From Escherichia coli (GTDB lineage: Bacteria; Pseudomonadota; Gammaproteobacteria; Enterobacterales; Enterobacteriaceae), in assembly GCF_003018255.1 (NCBI RefSeq), contig NZ_CP027440.1: a stretch of DNA of 64,000 bases, one strand, 5' to 3'. The notes beneath the pieces are model-generated. The model worked only from the letters and a program-made list of their open reading frames with translations, was not told the DNA's origin and did not search any database. Shown here one piece after another: positions 49,455 to 58,317 of the stretch. The position numbers and the translations under genes were made by a program. Position 1 is the stretch's first letter, and the number at the start of each line of letters is the position of its first letter.

Positions 49455-49568
49455 ATGTGGTATTTCGCATGGATTCTGGGAACGCTTCTTGCCTGTTCGT
49501 TTGGGGTAATCACCGCGCTGGCGCTTGAGCACGTCGAATCAGGCAAAGCCGGTCAAGAAGACATCTGA
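49455..49568 (+). CDS. cydX: Cytochrome bd-I accessory small protein CydX (37 aa)
   Basis: MWYFAWILGTLLACSFGVITALALEHVESGKAGQEDI with AGGAG RBS; below the ORF-track length cut-off; stop overlaps ybgE start. Confidence 0.85.
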   Translation: MWYFAWILGTLLACSFGVITALALEHVESGKAGQEDI

Positions 49569-49861
49569 TGAGTAAGATTATCGCAACCTTGTATGCGGTA
49601 ATGGACAAGCGCCCCCTGCGGGCGCTTTCCTTCGTGATGGCGCTTCTGTTAGCAGGATGTATGTTTTGGGACCCATCACGTTTCGCCGCGAAGACCAGTG
49701 AACTGGAAATCTGGCATGGTTTATTGCTGATGTGGGCCGTCTGTGCTGGTGTGATTCACGGCGTGGGCTTTCGTCCGCAGAAGGTTCTTTGGCAAGGGAT
49801 TTTTTGCCCATTGCTTGCCGATATTGTTCTCATTGTCGGGCTGATTTTCTTCTTCTTTTAA
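49568..49861 (+). CDS. ybgE: Small membrane protein YbgE of the cyd operon (97 aa)
   Basis: MSKIIATLYAVMDKRPLRALSFVMALLLAGCMFWDP... Confidence 0.85.
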   Translation: MSKIIATLYAVMDKRPLRALSFVMALLLAGCMFWDPSRFAAKTSELEIWHGLLLMWAVCAGVIHGVGFRPQKVLWQGIFCPLLADIVLIVGLIFFFF

Positions 49862-50010
49862 ATCAGAATTCTCTTTAAAAAATTATGGGCCGCTCCAGGC
49901 CCATAAATTTTTACGCTCCCTTAACTTGCCCTCATTCCCAAACCTCAATCGCGCGCGTATAGTAGCAGCGTTTAAAAGCTCTAACTTTTGTTGCATTACC
50001 GGGATGTAAA

Positions 50011-51104
<1,094 letters not shown>

Positions 51105-51107
51105 GCC

Positions 51108-51536
51108 ATGGCCAGAGCGCGTGGACGAGGTCGTCGCGATCTCAAGTCCGAAATCAACATTGTACCGTTGCTGGACGTACTGCTGGTGCTGTTGCTGATC
51201 TTTATGGCGACAGCGCCCATCATCACCCAGAGCGTGGAGGTCGATCTGCCAGACGCTACTGAATCACAGGCGGTGAGCAGTAACGATAATCCGCCAGTGA
51301 TTGTTGAAGTGTCTGGTATTGGTCAGTACACCGTGGTGGTTGAGAAAGATCGCCTGGAGCGTTTACCACCAGAGCAGGTGGTGGCGGAAGTGTCCAGCCG
51401 TTTCAAGGCCAACCCGAAAACGGTCTTTCTGATCGGTGGCGCAAAAGATGTGCCTTACGATGAAATAATTAAAGCACTGAACTTGTTACATAGTGCGGGT
51501 GTGAAATCGGTTGGTTTAATGACGCAGCCTATCTAA
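51108..51536 (+). CDS. tolR: Tol-Pal system protein TolR (142 aa)
   Basis: MARARGRGRRDLKSEINIVPLLDVLLVLLLIFMATAPIITQSVEVDLP... Confidence 0.97.
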   Translation: MARARGRGRRDLKSEINIVPLLDVLLVLLLIFMATAPIITQSVEVDLPDATESQAVSSNDNPPVIVEVSGIGQYTVVVEKDRLERLPPEQVVAEVSSRFKANPKTVFLIGGAKDVPYDEIIKALNLLHSAGVKSVGLMTQPI

Positions 51537-51600
51537 ACATCTGCGTTTCCCTTGCTTGAAAGAGAGCGGGTAACAGGCGAACAGTTTTTGGAAACCGAGA

Positions 51601-52866
51601 GTGTCAAAGGCAACCGAACAAAACGACAAGCTCAAGCGGGCGATAATTATTTCAGCAGTGCTGCATGTCATCTTATTTGCGGCGCTGATCTGGAGTTCGT
51701 TCGATGAGAATATAGAAGCTTCAGCCGGAGGCGGCGGTGGTTCATCCATCGACGCTGTCATGGTTGATTCAGGTGCGGTAGTTGAGCAGTACAAACGCAT
51801 GCAAAGCCAGGAATCAAGCGCGAAGCGTTCTGATGAGCAGCGCAAGATGAAGGAACAGCAGGCTGCGGAAGAGCTGCGTGAGAAACAAGCGGCTGAACAG
51901 GAACGCCTGAAGCAACTTGAGAAAGAGCGGTTAGCTGCTCAGGAGCAGAAAAAGCAGGCTGAAGAAGCCGCAAAACAGGCCGAGTTAAAGCAGAAGCAAG
52001 CGGAAGAAGCGGCAGCGAAAGCGGCGGCAGATGCTAAAGCGAAGGCCGAAGCGGATGCTAAAGCTGCGGAAGAAGCTGCGAAGAAAGCGGCTGCAGACGC
52101 GAAGAAAAAAGCAGAAGCAGAAGCCGCCAAAGCCGCAGCCGAAGCGCAGAAAAAAGCCGAGGCAGCCGCGGCGGCACTGAAGAAGAAAGCGGAAGCGGCA
52201 GAAGCAGCTGCAGCTGAAGCAAGAAAGAAAGCGGCAACTGAAGCTGCTGAAAAAGCCAAAGCAGAAGCTGAGAAGAAAGCGGCTGCTGAAAAGGCTGCAG
52301 CTGATAAGAAAGCGGCAGCAGAGAAAGCTGCAGCCGACAAAAAAGCAGCAGAAAAAGCGGCTGCTGAAAAGGCAGCAGCTGATAAGAAAGCAGCGGCAGA
52401 AAAAGCCGCCGCAGACAAAAAAGCGGCAGCTGCAAAAGCAGCAGCTGAAAAAGCCGCTGCAGCAAAAGCTGCCGCAGAGGCAGATGATATTTTCGGTGAG
52501 CTAAGCTCTGGTAAGAATGCACCGAAAACGGGGGGAGGGGCGAAAGGGAACAATGCTTCGCCAGCCGGGAGTGGTAATACTAAAAACAATGGCGCATCAG
52601 GGGCCGATATCAATAACTATGCCGGGCAGATTAAATCTGCTATCGAAAGTAAGTTCTATGACGCATCGTCCTATGCAGGCAAAACCTGTACGCTGCGCAT
52701 AAAACTGGCTCCCGATGGTATGTTACTGGATATCAAACCTGAAGGTGGCGATCCCGCACTTTGTCAGGCTGCGTTGGCAGCAGCTAAACTTGCGAAGATC
52801 CCGAAACCACCAAGCCAGGCAGTATATGAAGTGTTCAAAAACGCGCCATTGGACTTCAAACCGTAA
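51601..52866 (+). CDS. tolA: Tol-Pal system protein TolA (421 aa), GTG start, Ala/Lys/Glu-rich central helical repeat domain
   Basis: V/MSKATEQNDKLKRAIIISAVLHVILFAALIWSSF...; long low-complexity (E/K/A)n region; conserved C-terminal domain. Confidence 0.95.
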   Translation: MSKATEQNDKLKRAIIISAVLHVILFAALIWSSFDENIEASAGGGGGSSIDAVMVDSGAVVEQYKRMQSQESSAKRSDEQRKMKEQQAAEELREKQAAEQERLKQLEKERLAAQEQKKQAEEAAKQAELKQKQAEEAAAKAAADAKAKAEADAKAAEEAAKKAAADAKKKAEAEAAKAAAEAQKKAEAAAAALKKKAEAAEAAAAEARKKAATEAAEKAKAEAEKKAAAEKAAADKKAAAEKAAADKKAAEKAAAEKAAADKKAAAEKAAADKKAAAAKAAAEKAAAAKAAAEADDIFGELSSGKNAPKTGGGAKGNNASPAGSGNTKNNGASGADINNYAGQIKSAIESKFYDASSYAGKTCTLRIKLAPDGMLLDIKPEGGDPALCQAALAAAKLAKIPKPPSQAVYEVFKNAPLDFKP

Positions 52867-52998
52867 TCGCGATGTTGACTGTTCCGACGGTCAACATCAG
52901 GCACCGGTTGCCACGGGGTTCTGGTAGTTTTGTGTATTTTAGTTTGTTAACATTCTGCTAAATTATCGTGGGCCATCGGTCCAGATAAGGGAGATATG

Positions 52999-54291
52999 AT
53001 GAAGCAGGCATTACGAGTAGCATTTGGTTTTCTCATACTGTGGGCATCAGTTCTGCATGCTGAAGTCCGCATTGTGATCGACAGCGGTGTAGATTCCGGT
53101 CGTCCTATTGGAGTTGTTCCTTTCCAGTGGGCGGGCCCTGGTGCGGCACCTGAAGATATTGGCGGCATCGTTGCTGCCGACTTGCGTAACAGCGGTAAAT
53201 TTAATCCGTTAGATCGCGCTCGTCTGCCACAGCAGCCGGGTAGTGCGCAGGAAGTACAACCAGCTGCATGGTCCGCGCTGGGTATTGACGCTGTAGTTGT
53301 CGGTCAGGTCACTCCGAATCCGGATGGTTCTTACAATGTTGCTTATCAACTTGTTGACACTGGCGGCGCACCGGGTACTGTACTTGCTCAGAACTCGTAC
53401 AAAGTGAACAAGCAGTGGCTGCGTTATGCTGGTCATACCGCCAGTGATGAAGTGTTTGAAAAACTGACCGGCATTAAAGGTGCGTTCCGTACCCGTATTG
53501 CCTACGTTGTTCAGACCAACGGCGGTCAGTTCCCGTATGAACTGCGCGTATCTGACTATGACGGTTACAACCAGTTTGTCGTTCACCGTTCACCGCAGCC
53601 GCTGATGTCTCCGGCGTGGTCACCAGACGGTTCTAAACTGGCTTATGTGACCTTCGAAAGCGGTCGTTCCGCGCTGGTCATCCAAACGCTGGCAAATGGC
53701 GCTGTACGTCAGGTGGCTTCATTCCCGCGTCACAACGGTGCACCTGCATTCTCGCCAGACGGCAGCAAACTGGCATTCGCCTTGTCGAAAACCGGTAGTC
53801 TGAACCTGTACGTAATGGATTTGGCTTCTGGTCAGATCCGCCAGGTGACGGATGGTCGCAGTAACAATACCGAACCGACCTGGTTCCCGGACAGCCAGAA
53901 CCTGGCATTTACTTCTGACCAGGCCGGTCGTCCACAGGTTTATAAAGTGAATATCAACGGCGGTGCGCCACAACGTATTACCTGGGAAGGTTCGCAGAAC
54001 CAGGATGCGGATGTCAGCAGCGACGGTAAATTTATGGTAATGGTCAGCTCCAATGGTGGGCAGCAGCACATTGCCAAACAAGATCTGGCAACGGGAGGCG
54101 TACAAGTTCTGTCGTCCACGTTCCTGGATGAAACGCCAAGTCTGGCACCTAACGGCACTATGGTAATCTACAGCTCTTCTCAGGGGATGGGATCCGTGCT
54201 GAATTTGGTTTCTACAGATGGGCGTTTCAAAGCGCGTCTTCCGGCAACTGATGGACAGGTCAAATTCCCTGCCTGGTCGCCGTATCTGTGA
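52999..54291 (+). CDS. tolB: Tol-Pal system periplasmic beta-propeller protein TolB (430 aa)
   Basis: [44 protein letters not shown]... Confidence 0.97.
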
Positions 54292-54301
54292 TAATAATTA
54301 A

Positions 54302-54847
<546 letters not shown>

Positions 54848-54856
54848 GAGAATTGC

Positions 54857-55648
54857 ATGAGCAGTAACTTCAGACATCAACTATTGAGTCTGTCGTTACT
54901 GGTTGGTATAGCGGCCCCCTGGGCCGCTTTTGCTCAGGCACCAATCAGTAGTGTCGGCTCAGGCTCGGTCGAAGACCGCGTCACTCAACTTGAGCGTATT
55001 TCAAATGCTCACAGCCAGCTTTTAACCCAACTCCAGCAACAACTCTCTGATAATCAATCCGATATTGATTCCCTGCGCGGTCAGATTCAGGAAAATCAGT
55101 ATCAACTGAATCAGGTCGTGGAGCGGCAAAAGCAGATCCTGTTGCAGATCGATAGCCTCAGCAGCGGTGGTGCAGCGGCGCAATCAACCAGCGGTGATCA
55201 AAGCGGTGCGGCGGCATCAACGACGCCGACAGCTGATGCTGGTACTGCGAATGCTGGCGCGCCGGTGAAAAGCGGCGATGCAAACACGGATTACAATGCA
55301 GCAATTGCGCTGGTGCAGGATAAATCCCGCCAGGATGAAGCAATAGTGGCATTTCAGAATTTCATCAAAAATTACCCTGATTCAACTTACCTGCCAAACG
55401 CCAATTATTGGCTGGGTCAGTTAAACTACAACAAGGGTAAAAAAGATGATGCGGCGTATTATTTTGCTTCGGTAGTGAAAAACTATCCGAAGTCACCGAA
55501 GGCTGCAGATGCGATGTTTAAAGTCGGCGTCATCATGCAGGACAAAGGTGACACCGCAAAAGCGAAAGCCGTATACCAGCAGGTTATCAGTAAATACCCT
55601 GGTACTGATGGCGCTAAACAGGCGCAAAAACGTCTGAACGCGATGTAA
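54857..55648 (+). CDS. cpoB: Cell division coordinator CpoB (YbgF), TPR protein (263 aa)
   Basis: MSSNFRHQLLSLSLLVGIAAPWAAFAQ signal peptide, coiled coil, TPR repeats. Confidence 0.95.
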   Translation: MSSNFRHQLLSLSLLVGIAAPWAAFAQAPISSVGSGSVEDRVTQLERISNAHSQLLTQLQQQLSDNQSDIDSLRGQIQENQYQLNQVVERQKQILLQIDSLSSGGAAAQSTSGDQSGAAASTTPTADAGTANAGAPVKSGDANTDYNAAIALVQDKSRQDEAIVAFQNFIKNYPDSTYLPNANYWLGQLNYNKGKKDDAAYYFASVVKNYPKSPKAADAMFKVGVIMQDKGDTAKAKAVYQQVISKYPGTDGAKQAQKRLNAM

Positions 55649-55812
55649 TGCATAACACACGACCAGAAGTCGCATTATTTCTGGTCGTGTCGTGCGAATC
55701 ATAAGCAGTTGAGTGATCTGCATCGAAATTTTTGTTGCGCTCAAGTCTGAAATCAGTAATATATGCCGCCGTTGCCACGGGATATCAAACAAACCGAAAG
55801 CAACGAAAAAGT

Positions 55813-55888
55813 GGGTCGTTAGCTCAGTTGGTAGAGCAGTTGACTTTTAATCAATTGGTCGCAGGTTCGAATCCTGCACGACCCACCA
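55813..55888 (+). tRNA. lysT: tRNA-Lys (anticodon UUU)
   Basis: GGGTCGTTAGCTCAGTTGGTAGAGCAGTTGACTTTTAATCAATTGGTCGCAGGTTCGAATCCTGCACGACCCACCA. Confidence 0.95.
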
Positions 55889-56023
55889 ATCGCTAAGGTG
55901 GAAGCGGTAGTAAAACGTGAAGGATAACGTTGCGTCAGCAACGGCCCGAAGGGCGAGACGAAGTCGAGTCATCCTGCACGACCCACCACTAACCTAGTTA
56001 GTTGTAGTATCCAGCGTAGTATC

Positions 56024-56099
56024 GGGTGATTAGCTCAGCTGGGAGAGCACCTCCCTTACAAGGAGGGGGTCGGCGGTTCGATCCCGTCATCACCCACCA
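56024..56099 (+). tRNA. valT: tRNA-Val (anticodon UAC)
   Basis: GGGTGATTAGCTCAGCTGGGAGAGCACCTCCCTTACAAGGAGGGGGTCGGCGGTTCGATCCCGTCATCACCCACCA. Confidence 0.95.
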
Positions 56100-56101
56100 C
56101 C

Positions 56102-56177
56102 GGGTCGTTAGCTCAGTTGGTAGAGCAGTTGACTTTTAATCAATTGGTCGCAGGTTCGAATCCTGCACGACCCACCA
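56102..56177 (+). tRNA. lysW: tRNA-Lys (UUU)
   Basis: Identical to the lysT sequence. Confidence 0.95.
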
Positions 56178-56228
56178 CTAATTACGGTGGGTTCGGTGGA
56201 AGTAGTTTGTAGTATTCAGCGCAGTATC

Positions 56229-56304
56229 GGGTGATTAGCTCAGCTGGGAGAGCACCTCCCTTACAAGGAGGGGGTCGGCGGTTCGATCCCGTCATCACCC
56301 ACCA
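56229..56304 (+). tRNA. valZ: tRNA-Val (UAC)
   Basis: Identical to the valT sequence. Confidence 0.95.
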
Positions 56305-56307
56305 CTC

Positions 56308-56383
56308 GGGTCGTTAGCTCAGTTGGTAGAGCAGTTGACTTTTAATCAATTGGTCGCAGGTTCGAATCCTGCACGACCCACCA
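56308..56383 (+). tRNA. lysY: tRNA-Lys (UUU)
   Basis: Identical to the lysT sequence. Confidence 0.95.
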
Positions 56384-56529
56384 GTTTTAACATCAAACTC
56401 AGATGTTAAGCGTGAAGGATAACGTTGCGCCAGCAACGGCCCGTAGGGCGAGCGAAGCGAGTCATCCTGCACGACCCACCAATTTTAAAGATTGGTTCCG
56501 AGTAGAAATCTTTCAGGTAACACCCGTAT

Positions 56530-56605
56530 GGGTCGTTAGCTCAGTTGGTAGAGCAGTTGACTTTTAATCAATTGGTCGCAGGTTCGAATCCTGCACGACC
56601 CACCA
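56530..56605 (+). tRNA. lysZ: tRNA-Lys (UUU)
   Basis: Identical to the lysT sequence. Confidence 0.95.
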
Positions 56606-56638
56606 TCCTGAATGATTAAAGCAGCATAATCCCGCAAG

Positions 56639-56714
56639 GGGTCGTTAGCTCAGTTGGTAGAGCAGTTGACTTTTAATCAATTGGTCGCAGGTTCGAATCC
56701 TGCACGACCCACCA
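56639..56714 (+). tRNA. lysQ: tRNA-Lys (UUU)
   Basis: Identical to the lysT sequence. Confidence 0.95.
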
Positions 56715-57063
56715 ATGTAAAAAAGCGCCCTAAAGGCGCTTTTTTGCTATCTGCGATACTCAAAGATTCGAACCTGCAGCAGGTTCGAGTTGAGCGCAGC
56801 GAAACAACGGAGCCGCTCGCGGCGACGGCCCGTAGGGCGAGCGAAGCGAGTTATCCTGCACGACCCACCAATGTAAAAAAGCGCCCTAAAGGCGCTTTTT
56901 TGCTATCTGCGATACTCAAAGATTCGAACCTGCAGCAGGTTCGAGTTGAGCGCAGCGAAATAACGGAGCCGCTCGCGGCGACGGCCCGTAGGGCGAGCGA
57001 AGCGAGTCATCCTGCACGACCCACCAATGTAAAAAAGCGCCCTAAAGGCGCTTTTTTGCTATT
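56715..57063 (+). repeat. Tandem direct repeat, 156-bp period, about 2.2 copies; each unit carries a terminator hairpin and a tRNA-Lys 3-prime-end fragment
   Basis: Units 56715-56870 and 56871-57026 differ at about 3 positions; a partial third copy (terminator part) follows at 57027-57063; each unit ends ...ATCCTGCACGACCCACCA. Confidence 0.9.
56719..56747 (+). terminator. Rho-independent terminator after lysQ (repeated at about 56875 and 57031)
   Basis: AAAAAAGCGCCC-TAAA-GGCGCTTTTTTG hairpin with T run. Confidence 0.85.
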
Positions 57064-57273
57064 CAGGCATCCTCAATTTCACTTTGTAACCTGATGACAT
57101 CTTCAGAGCTTACTTTGCAAGCAACTCTACGTCGGTGGAATTAGGCGTAATTCGAGTGACTTTTCCCCACCATTCGACTATCTTGTTTAGCATATAAAAC
57201 AAATTTCACCGATAACAGCGAATATTACGCTCATGTCGGTTTTAACGTTAAGCCTGTAAAACGAGATGGTAAG

Positions 57274-58317
57274 ATGAGCGTGATGTTTGATCCAGACACG
57301 GCGATTTATCCTTTTCCCCCGAAGCCGACGCCGTTAAGCATTGATGAAAAAGCGTATTACCGCGAGAAGATAAAACGTCTGCTAAAAGAACGTAATGCGG
57401 TGATGGTTGCCCACTACTATACCGATCCCGAAATTCAACAACTGGCAGAAGAAACCGGTGGCTGTATTTCTGATTCTCTGGAAATGGCGCGCTTCGGTGC
57501 AAAGCATCCCGCTTCTACGTTGTTAGTCGCTGGGGTGAGATTTATGGGAGAAACCGCCAAAATTCTCAGTCCGGAAAAAACAATTCTGATGCCGACACTT
57601 CAGGCTGAATGTTCACTGGATCTCGGCTGCTCTGTTGAAGAATTTAACGCATTTTGCGATGCCCATCCCGATCGTACTGTCGTCGTCTACGCCAACACTT
57701 CTGCTGCGGTAAAAGCGCGCGCAGATTGGGTGGTAACTTCAAGCATTGCCGTCGAACTTATTGATCATCTGGATAGTTTGGGTGAAAAAATCATCTGGGC
57801 ACCCGACAAACATCTGGGGCGTTACGTGCAAAAACAGACGGGCGCAGACATATTATGCTGGCAGGGTGCCTGCATTGTGCATGATGAGTTTAAGACTCAG
57901 GCGTTAACCCGCTTGCAAGAAGAATACCCGGATGCTGCCATACTGGTGCATCCAGAATCACCGCAAGCTATTGTAGAGATGGCGGATGCGGTCGGTTCCA
58001 CCAGTCAACTGATCGCTGCTGCGAAAACATTGCCACATCAGAGGCTTATTGTGGCAACCGATCGGGGTATTTTCTACAAAATGCAGCAGGCGGTGCCAGT
58101 TAAAGAGTTACTGGAAGCACCAACCGCAGGTGAGGGTGCAACCTGCCGCAGCTGCGCGCATTGTCCGTGGATGGCCATGAATGGCCTTCAGGCCATCGCA
58201 GAGGCATTAGAACAGGAAGGAAGCAATCACGAGGTTCATGTTGATGAAAGGCTGCGAGAGAGGGCGCTGGTGCCGCTCAATCGTATGCTGGATTTTGCGG
58301 CTACACTACGTGGATAA
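57274..58317 (+). CDS. nadA: Quinolinate synthase A (347 aa)
   Basis: [63 protein letters not shown]... Confidence 0.97.

Follow-up and report, generated by a model that had tools for sequence, protein, structure and literature searches.

The window, a stretch of 64,000 nucleotides of Escherichia coli DNA, carries tolA on its plus strand at 51601-52866, an open reading frame (ORF) that begins with GTG and encodes 421 amino acids followed by a stop codon. The product is identified as TolA by its match to the NCBIfam equivalog model NF007065 (554 bits, cut-off 213); it also scores 308 bits against TIGR02794 (cut-off 59), and it is identical over 421 of 421 residues to TolA of strain MG1655 (b0739). 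At the DNA level, the gene differs from its MG1655 counterpart at 16 nucleotides, all of them in third codon positions and all synonymous, and it is 100% identical to tolA of E. coli DETEC-S792. Among complete E. coli genomes, tolA was found in 5,425 of 5,426. From 50011 to 55648, the list of ORFs and the Pfam matches give the canonical gene order ybgC-tolQ-tolR-tolA-tolB-pal-cpoB, with the domains 4HBT thioesterase (YbgC), MotA_ExbB (TolQ) and ExbD (TolR) upstream of tolA, and TolB_N plus PD40 (TolB), OmpA (Pal) and TolA_bind_tri plus TPR (CpoB) downstream; the annotation of DETEC-S792 gives a matching order of tol genes. This genomic context (tolQ-tolR-tolA-tolB-pal) separates TolA from TonB. 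An Rfam scan of 49500-57500 detected no known RNA within tolA or antisense to it, and the matches in the scanned interval, all downstream of the gene, were the cpoB thermometer, tRNAs and RtT elements.

The encoded protein can be divided into three domains and a linker, all on the plus strand. Domain I is the N-terminal membrane anchor (aa 1-47; 51601-51741), whose hydrophobic helix contains the motor-binding motif S18-x3-H22-x6-L29-x3-S33; the residues S18, H22, L29 and S33 are directly legible in IIISAVLHVILFAALIWSS and correspond to the SHLS motif as defined in previous work (PMC10666116, PMC12204202). A single-sequence AF2 model places a transmembrane helix at aa 3-34, followed by a disordered stretch. 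Domain II (51778-52506) is predicted from AF2 and from the pairing of charged residues to be an alpha-helical rod or hairpin, with one helix at aa 60-200, a break at aa 201-203 and a second helix at aa 204-302. A Gly/Asn/Ser-rich flexible linker with the sequence GKNAPKTGGGAKGNNASPAGSGNTKNNGASG (aa 303-333; 52507-52599) then connects domains II and III; AF2 assigns it no secondary structure, and its pLDDT falls below 50 at aa 306-331. Domain III, the C-terminal globular domain (aa 325-419; 52573-52857), is recognized by PF06519 (E 2e-38), which is the sole Pfam match in TolA, domain II being without a model. Chains of the solved E. coli domain III (1tol, 1s62, 2x9a and 3qdp) match aa 292-421 with E-values of 3e-59 to 4e-78, and the cryo-EM entries 9k49, 9ddm and 9kpz have full-length TolA as their deposited sequence. 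An earlier note on this DNA had assigned the interval 51900-52500 to the central domain of TolA, and the family models, PF06519 and the MG1655 protein all confirm that assignment. On the explanation that we favor as a whole, and in which we have high confidence, most of domain II is encoded within this interval, and TolA is the subunit of the Tol-Pal envelope system that transduces force.

Composition and repeat structure of domain II

Residues 101-300, encoded by 51901-52500, consist of 48% Ala, 22% Lys, 16% Glu and 4% Asp, and the underlying DNA is correspondingly skewed (38% A, 33% G, 22% C and 7.5% T), with T making up ∼20% of the remaining gene. The core of the repeat is a tandem tract of 13 imperfect units of 15 or 18 nt at 52276-52479 (plus strand; aa 226-293), delimited by Tandem Repeats Finder (TRF), by parsing of the units and by an excess of self-matches at lag 15. 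The units read KAAAE, KAAAD, KKAAAE, KAAAD, KKAAE, KAAAE, KAAAD, KKAAAE, KAAAD, KKAAAA, KAAAE, KAAAA and KAAAE. TRF reported a 15-nt period with 13.3 copies at 52258-52469 and only 69% matches, as well as 33-nt periods. Superimposed on the single units is a higher-order duplication of 78 nt (five units, 26 aa) at 52271-52429 on the plus strand, detected by TRF as a period of 78 with 2.0 copies and 88% matches, in which exact direct repeats of 20 nt and 17 nt lie 78 nt apart (at 52276/52354 and 52297/52375, respectively). Further upstream on the same strand, at 52014-52159, TRF found degenerate arrays with a 24-nt (8-aa) period, such as ADAKAKAE, with 67-81% matches.

As a control for composition, the observed periodicities were compared with those of codon shuffles that retained the amino-acid and codon content. 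In 52258-52479, self-matches exceeded the shuffles at lag 15 (z 5.9), lag 33 (z 5.2) and lag 78 (z 5.1), and in 51901-52257 a weak 24-nt period alone stood out (z 3.7). The whole interval is therefore of low complexity, and repetition beyond that expected from composition is confined to its last third. Head-to-tail units in excess of composition, found both by TRF and by the lag z-scores, qualify this tract as an intragenic VNTR. The motif quoted in the earlier note, KAAAEKAAADKKAA, is present and starts at aa 226 (position 52276). Its description of the central domain as built from near-perfect short repeats holds for the protein sequence of the last third (52276-52479), but not for the DNA, where matches reach 69%, nor for the upstream part, which is merely low-complexity or degenerate.

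The tract is that of E. coli K-12: the protein is the same, as are the 13 units of 15 or 18 nt and their position at the C-terminal end of domain II, and the 16 synonymous nucleotides are the only differences, so that nothing is structurally or functionally distinct. The tandem-repeat tract in domain II of K-12 TolA reportedly goes back to Levengood et al. in 1991. Zhou, Michiels and Aertsen (PLoS One 2012, PMC3477136) described it as ‘13 imperfect repeats of 15 or 18 bp’ coding for a Lys- and Ala-rich stretch at the C-terminal end of domain II. Indeed, the tolA gene, its three-domain layout, the Lys-Ala-Glu/Asp repeat, the variation of its copy number from strain to strain, its RecA-dependent dynamics and its effects on phenotype have all been published already.

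Open reading frames opposite tolA

Two long ORFs were listed on the minus strand opposite domain II, one of 224 aa with an Ala/Phe/Ser low-complexity translation (51939-52613) and one of 154 aa rich in Leu, Gln and Pro (52058-52522); both are spurious, the former being a by-product of tolA composition. Reverse-strand stop codons appear on the plus strand as TTA, CTA or TCA, and across the T-poor region these triplets are missing for 516, 522 and 678 nt in the three phases; in the phase of the 224-aa ORF, none occurs between 51939 and 52617. The third reverse frame, which is in register with the codons of tolA, is equally open and went unlisted because it lacks a start codon. In the codon shuffles, the open reverse frames had mean lengths of 121, 145 and 69 codons, compared with 171, 186 and 146 codons observed. 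Composition is thus mainly responsible for the reverse ORFs, and the order of the repeats lengthens the open runs further. The earlier note had traced these ORFs to the repeat region, which was correct in substance, with composition as the main cause and repeat order as a reinforcement. As a side effect, the T-poor set of GCN, AAR and GAR codons leaves three stop-free reverse frames, and two meaningless ORFs along with them.

A different explanation takes one of the long reverse ORFs, especially the one of 224 aa, for a true antisense gene that overlaps tolA and has an Ala/Phe/Ser-rich, hydrophobic product. The frame is indeed long and open, and all 10 substitutions that distinguish it from MG1655 are synonymous both in it and in tolA; were the gene real, the coinciding wobble positions would allow tolA and the 224-aa frame to be conserved together. 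However, the joint synonymy at 10 of 10 positions is purely geometric and says nothing of selection, because the wobble positions of the 224-aa frame and of tolA coincide: where the third base of a tolA codon (N) precedes the GC of an Ala codon, the reverse complement is GCN, again a codon for Ala, and changes that are silent in tolA are thereby silent in this frame. In the 154-aa ORF, by comparison, all six substitutions relative to MG1655 are non-synonymous in the ORF and silent in tolA, a decisive result for that frame. Codon shuffles also yield reverse frames of similar openness, and neither the low-complexity translation of the 224-aa ORF nor that of the 154-aa ORF matched a Pfam model at E≤1. 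A scan for promoters and terminators gave 10 terminator-like hairpins on the minus strand, whose excess inside the repeat we read as a by-product of composition, and no promoter-like site on that strand close to where the 224-aa ORF begins. RefSeq annotates tolA only over the reverse ORFs in 11 of the 11 tolA-only stretches fetched. An overlapping gene at this position thus has no positive support, and we give it next to no credence. For annotation, long reverse-strand ORFs over tolA are best ignored.

Length variation of tolA among E. coli genomes

The earlier note had predicted that the region is prone to length variation and had proposed a comparison of TolA length across strains. We therefore compiled tolA lengths from evenly spaced rows down the ranked hits from the 5,425 genomes, a systematic sample of ∼98 records. 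Among the 39 full-length hits of a 40-row sample, 26 were 1266 nt long, one was 1265 nt long (and annotated as frameshifted) and 12 had other lengths; in a 60-row sample, 40 of 59 hits were 1266 nt long and 19 had other lengths. About one third of the sampled complete E. coli genomes therefore carry a tolA of a length other than 1266 nt. Both samples together contained 16 in-frame length classes (1185, 1188, 1200, 1212, 1215, 1233, 1251, 1263, 1266, 1281, 1290, 1296, 1299, 1311, 1314 and 1344 nt), equivalent to proteins of 394-447 aa, and the commonest alternative to 1266 nt was 1311 nt, present in about 10% of the sampled genomes. The sampled O157:H7 strains had short alleles of 1185 and 1215 nt, and one O55:H7 strain had an allele of 1233 nt. 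The prediction was thus borne out, and a comparison of this kind had already been published (PMC3477136).

The position of the differences was determined by fetching and aligning ten in-frame alleles, nine of them of differing length. All indels fell within 52029-52446, and with its 16 length classes tolA shows VNTR copy-number polymorphism. The indels measured 3, 6, 24, 33, 45, 48, 66 and 78 nt; apart from those of 3 and 6 nt, each is made up of whole 15/18-nt units or corresponds to the 24-nt upstream unit, which is exemplified by a natural duplication of 24 nt after 52029 in strain GPEC1352. Domains I and III were invariant across the fetched alleles except for a single substitution, V23A in strain KMi029. 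This strain also carries a 78-nt duplication and GPEC349-628 a 78-nt deletion, both of which match the higher-order repeat.

We propose that the C-terminal third of domain II originated by tandem amplification of a unit of 5 or 6 residues (15 or 18 nt), and that recombination or slippage between units adds or removes whole units in frame, because the units are alike in DNA sequence and are multiples of three nucleotides in length, giving the natural TolA proteins of ∼394-447 aa. The 78-nt duplication is likely the main substrate for recombination and the source of the commonest rearrangement. In the laboratory, the dominant event in the K-12 tract was likewise an in-frame change, a five-unit deletion, and contraction occurred at a frequency of 6.9e-5 per cell, which fell to 15% of that value in a recA background and rose 3.3-fold in uvrD (PMC3477136). 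The five-unit laboratory deletion removes the same 78 nt as that seen in the natural alleles here. An earlier survey (Zhou et al. 2012, Res Microbiol), as cited in PMC3477136, counted 8-16 units among 234 isolates.

We also considered whether tolA might be a phase-variable contingency locus that is switched on and off by changes in unit number. This class does not apply, as the units are 15 or 18 nt long and every unit change stays in frame. The 31 sampled in-frame alleles that are not 1266 nt long all depart from that length by multiples of 3 nt, and the nine of these that were fetched encode a full TolA; the single frameshifted record, from NCTC9966, owes its shifted frame to the loss of one nucleotide in an A5 run and not to a change in units. 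Length differences in tolA between assemblies are accordingly to be treated as real in-frame alleles, and single-base frameshifts in A-runs deserve suspicion. In addition, short-read assemblies can collapse or expand the tolA repeat.

Domain II as a predicted helical spacer

In the single-sequence AF2 model, the two helices of domain II (aa 60-200 and 204-302) reach pLDDT values of 80-89 along most of their extent. A low overall pTM (0.25) is what would be expected of a rod with flexible joints. Independently of the model, the distribution of charges over aa 60-302 departs strongly from that of shuffled sequences: 29 pairs of Lys at position i with Glu or Asp at i+4 were observed compared with 11.3 expected (z 6.7), and like-charge pairs at i+3 or i+4 numbered 4-5 compared with 22 expected (z about −4.7). 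As judged from sequence, this charge pattern is the signature of a putative alanine-based helix with intrahelical salt bridges. Domain II thus belongs, by prediction only, to the alpha-helical, gamma-proteobacterial type of TolA. The length of domain II varies between 110 and 335 residues across Proteobacteria, and its helical form occurs chiefly in gamma-proteobacteria (PMC12204202). Published work describes domain II as an extended alpha-helix, modelled as a hairpin of 220 Å that may open under the proton-motive force (PMC8928145), and circular dichroism and SAXS evidence for an extended helix is relayed in these two papers (PMC12204202, PMC8928145).

Taken together, these features suggest that domain II forms an alanine-based alpha-helix of ∼240 residues, comprising two long helices joined at ∼201 like the published ‘helical hairpin’ and probably stabilized by salt bridges from Lys at i to Glu or Asp at i+4. 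Such a stiff spacer would take domain III through the periplasm, from the TolQR motor in the inner membrane to the outer membrane, where TolB-Pal is located. Each 5-residue unit would amount to ∼7.5 Å of helix, and therefore the gain or loss of units would be expected to alter the reach of the spacer or the balance of its arms and to leave the fold undisturbed. Most of the mapped natural indels lie in the second predicted arm, aa 204-302. On the hairpin model, indels might alter the asymmetry of the arms, and hence the resting position of domain III, and not simply the total reach.

Two other views of the variable region assign less importance to its structure or to its length. One regards the Ala/Lys/Glu region as a low-complexity tether that is intrinsically disordered, in which length alone matters and structure is irrelevant. 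Its composition is of low complexity and is covered by no Pfam model, and a TolA with a 127-aa disordered sequence in place of domain II retains some colicin import; however, the same replacement fails to stabilize the outer membrane (PMC10666116), and the continuous AF2 helices, the strong opposite-charge pairing at i and i+4 with avoidance of like charges, and the circular dichroism and SAXS evidence relayed in the literature (PMC12204202, PMC8928145) all point to a helix. We consequently consider a disordered tether very improbable. The other view, which accepts the helix and which we take seriously even though we lean somewhat away from it, is that the length polymorphism is nearly neutral, a by-product of repeat instability that is filtered by reading frame and a minimum length, without adaptive tuning or bet-hedging. 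Consistent with this view, about two thirds of the sampled genomes keep exactly 1266 nt, the variants are modest (none loses more than 27 aa or gains more than 26 aa), and engineered proteins with 6-39 units were without exception stably expressed and retained at least partial function (PMC3477136). On the other hand, engineered alleles with 2-39 units rescued a tolA deletion to varying degrees when challenged with deoxycholate (DOC), SDS, osmotic stress or phage fd, and copy number had opposing effects on DOC/SDS tolerance, osmotic tolerance and fd plating (PMC3477136), and therefore offers a target for selection. The recurrence of particular lengths by lineage, as with 1185 and 1215 nt in O157:H7 and 1233 nt in O55:H7, also speaks against neutrality, although plain inheritance explains it equally well. 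The reading of domain II as a helical spacer of variable length thus leads to the questions of whether repeat number is tuned to the width of the envelope or to pressure from phages, colicins or detergents, and of how a helical hairpin would transmit force.

The predicted spacer resembles several known systems. TonB, a homologous force transducer, likewise has a repetitive, charged and length-variable middle domain that spans the periplasm, but its domain II, with Glu-Pro and Lys-Pro repeats, forms a polyproline-II helix from Pro-containing dipeptides, whereas aa 60-302 of TolA are without proline and are predicted to be alpha-helical. In chimeras, the middle domains of TonB and TolA can partly replace each other (PMC10666116). 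The resemblance of the TolA units to engineered linkers would be one of function and not of homology, resting on the shared principle of opposite charges at i and i+4 and on a presumed role as a stiff spacer of modular length. In the rigid (EAAAK)n linkers and in alanine-based salt-bridged peptides, three Ala residues are flanked by Lys and Glu or Asp, which places opposite charges at i and i+4. Compared with (EAAAK)n linkers, the TolA array is natural and imperfect, runs from Lys to Glu, contains extra Lys residues (KKAAAE), extends over ∼240 residues and possibly folds into a hairpin. In ER/K single alpha-helix domains, charged residues (Glu, Arg and Lys) dominate and form ion pairs from i to i+4. 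TolA would share with them a long, isolated, charge-stabilized helix that serves as a spacer or lever, with the same i to i+4 ion pairs, but it falls outside the ER/K class, since the segment is 48% Ala and ∼42% charged and has almost no Arg.

Antisense features of the tolA repeat

Ten of the 11 terminator-like hairpins found in the scanned region (window 51400-53100) lie on the minus strand within the tolA repeat, at 52116-52483, compared with a shuffle expectation of 2.6. These minus-strand hairpins look like a by-product of the coding sequence, in which GCNGC Ala codons form palindromes and the complement of AAA Lys codons comes next. Antisense transcripts across the repeat, if there are any, would tend to be halted by them.

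The 224-amino-acid reverse ORF (window 51939-52613, minus strand) shares its wobble positions with tolA, and all 10 substitutions within it that separate the window from MG1655 are synonymous in both frames. This pattern illustrates that an antisense frame may seem conserved even if it is not a gene.

tolA in other E. coli genomes

A tolA match was missing from one of the 5,426 genomes in the E. coli complete-genome collection; two matches in this collection fell on records classed as plasmids. In strain NCTC9966, the loss of one base from an A5 run (GAAAAAGCC), at the equivalent of window 52250 and immediately upstream of the repeat, has led to the annotation of tolA as a frameshifted pseudogene. 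This frameshift could reflect an error in sequencing, or the allele could be a genuine null. In DETEC-S792, tolA is 100% identical to that of the window, with 21 mismatches across the entire 5.6-kb tol-pal cluster.

RNA elements and neighboring regions

A full-length Rfam match (142 bits) to the CpoB/ybgF intercistronic RNA thermometer (RF02782) straddles the pal-cpoB junction at window 54748-54886. Directly downstream of cpoB, seven tRNA-Lys and tRNA-Val genes are interspersed with four Rfam matches to the RtT RNA element (RF00391; window 55820-55988, 56315-56481, 56745-56870 and 56901-57026). Two ∼100-nt units in this region (55871-55970 and 56366-56463), each of which has a copy of the 3′ end of tRNA-Lys at its start, are both missing from DETEC-S792 when it is compared with the window. 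Upstream of cydA, the DETEC-S792 stretch between mngB and cydA (positions 188-6311 of L013, from this strain) contains a gene of the RtcB family and, along with hypothetical genes, genes for methylaspartate mutase (glmS, glmL and a truncated subunit E).
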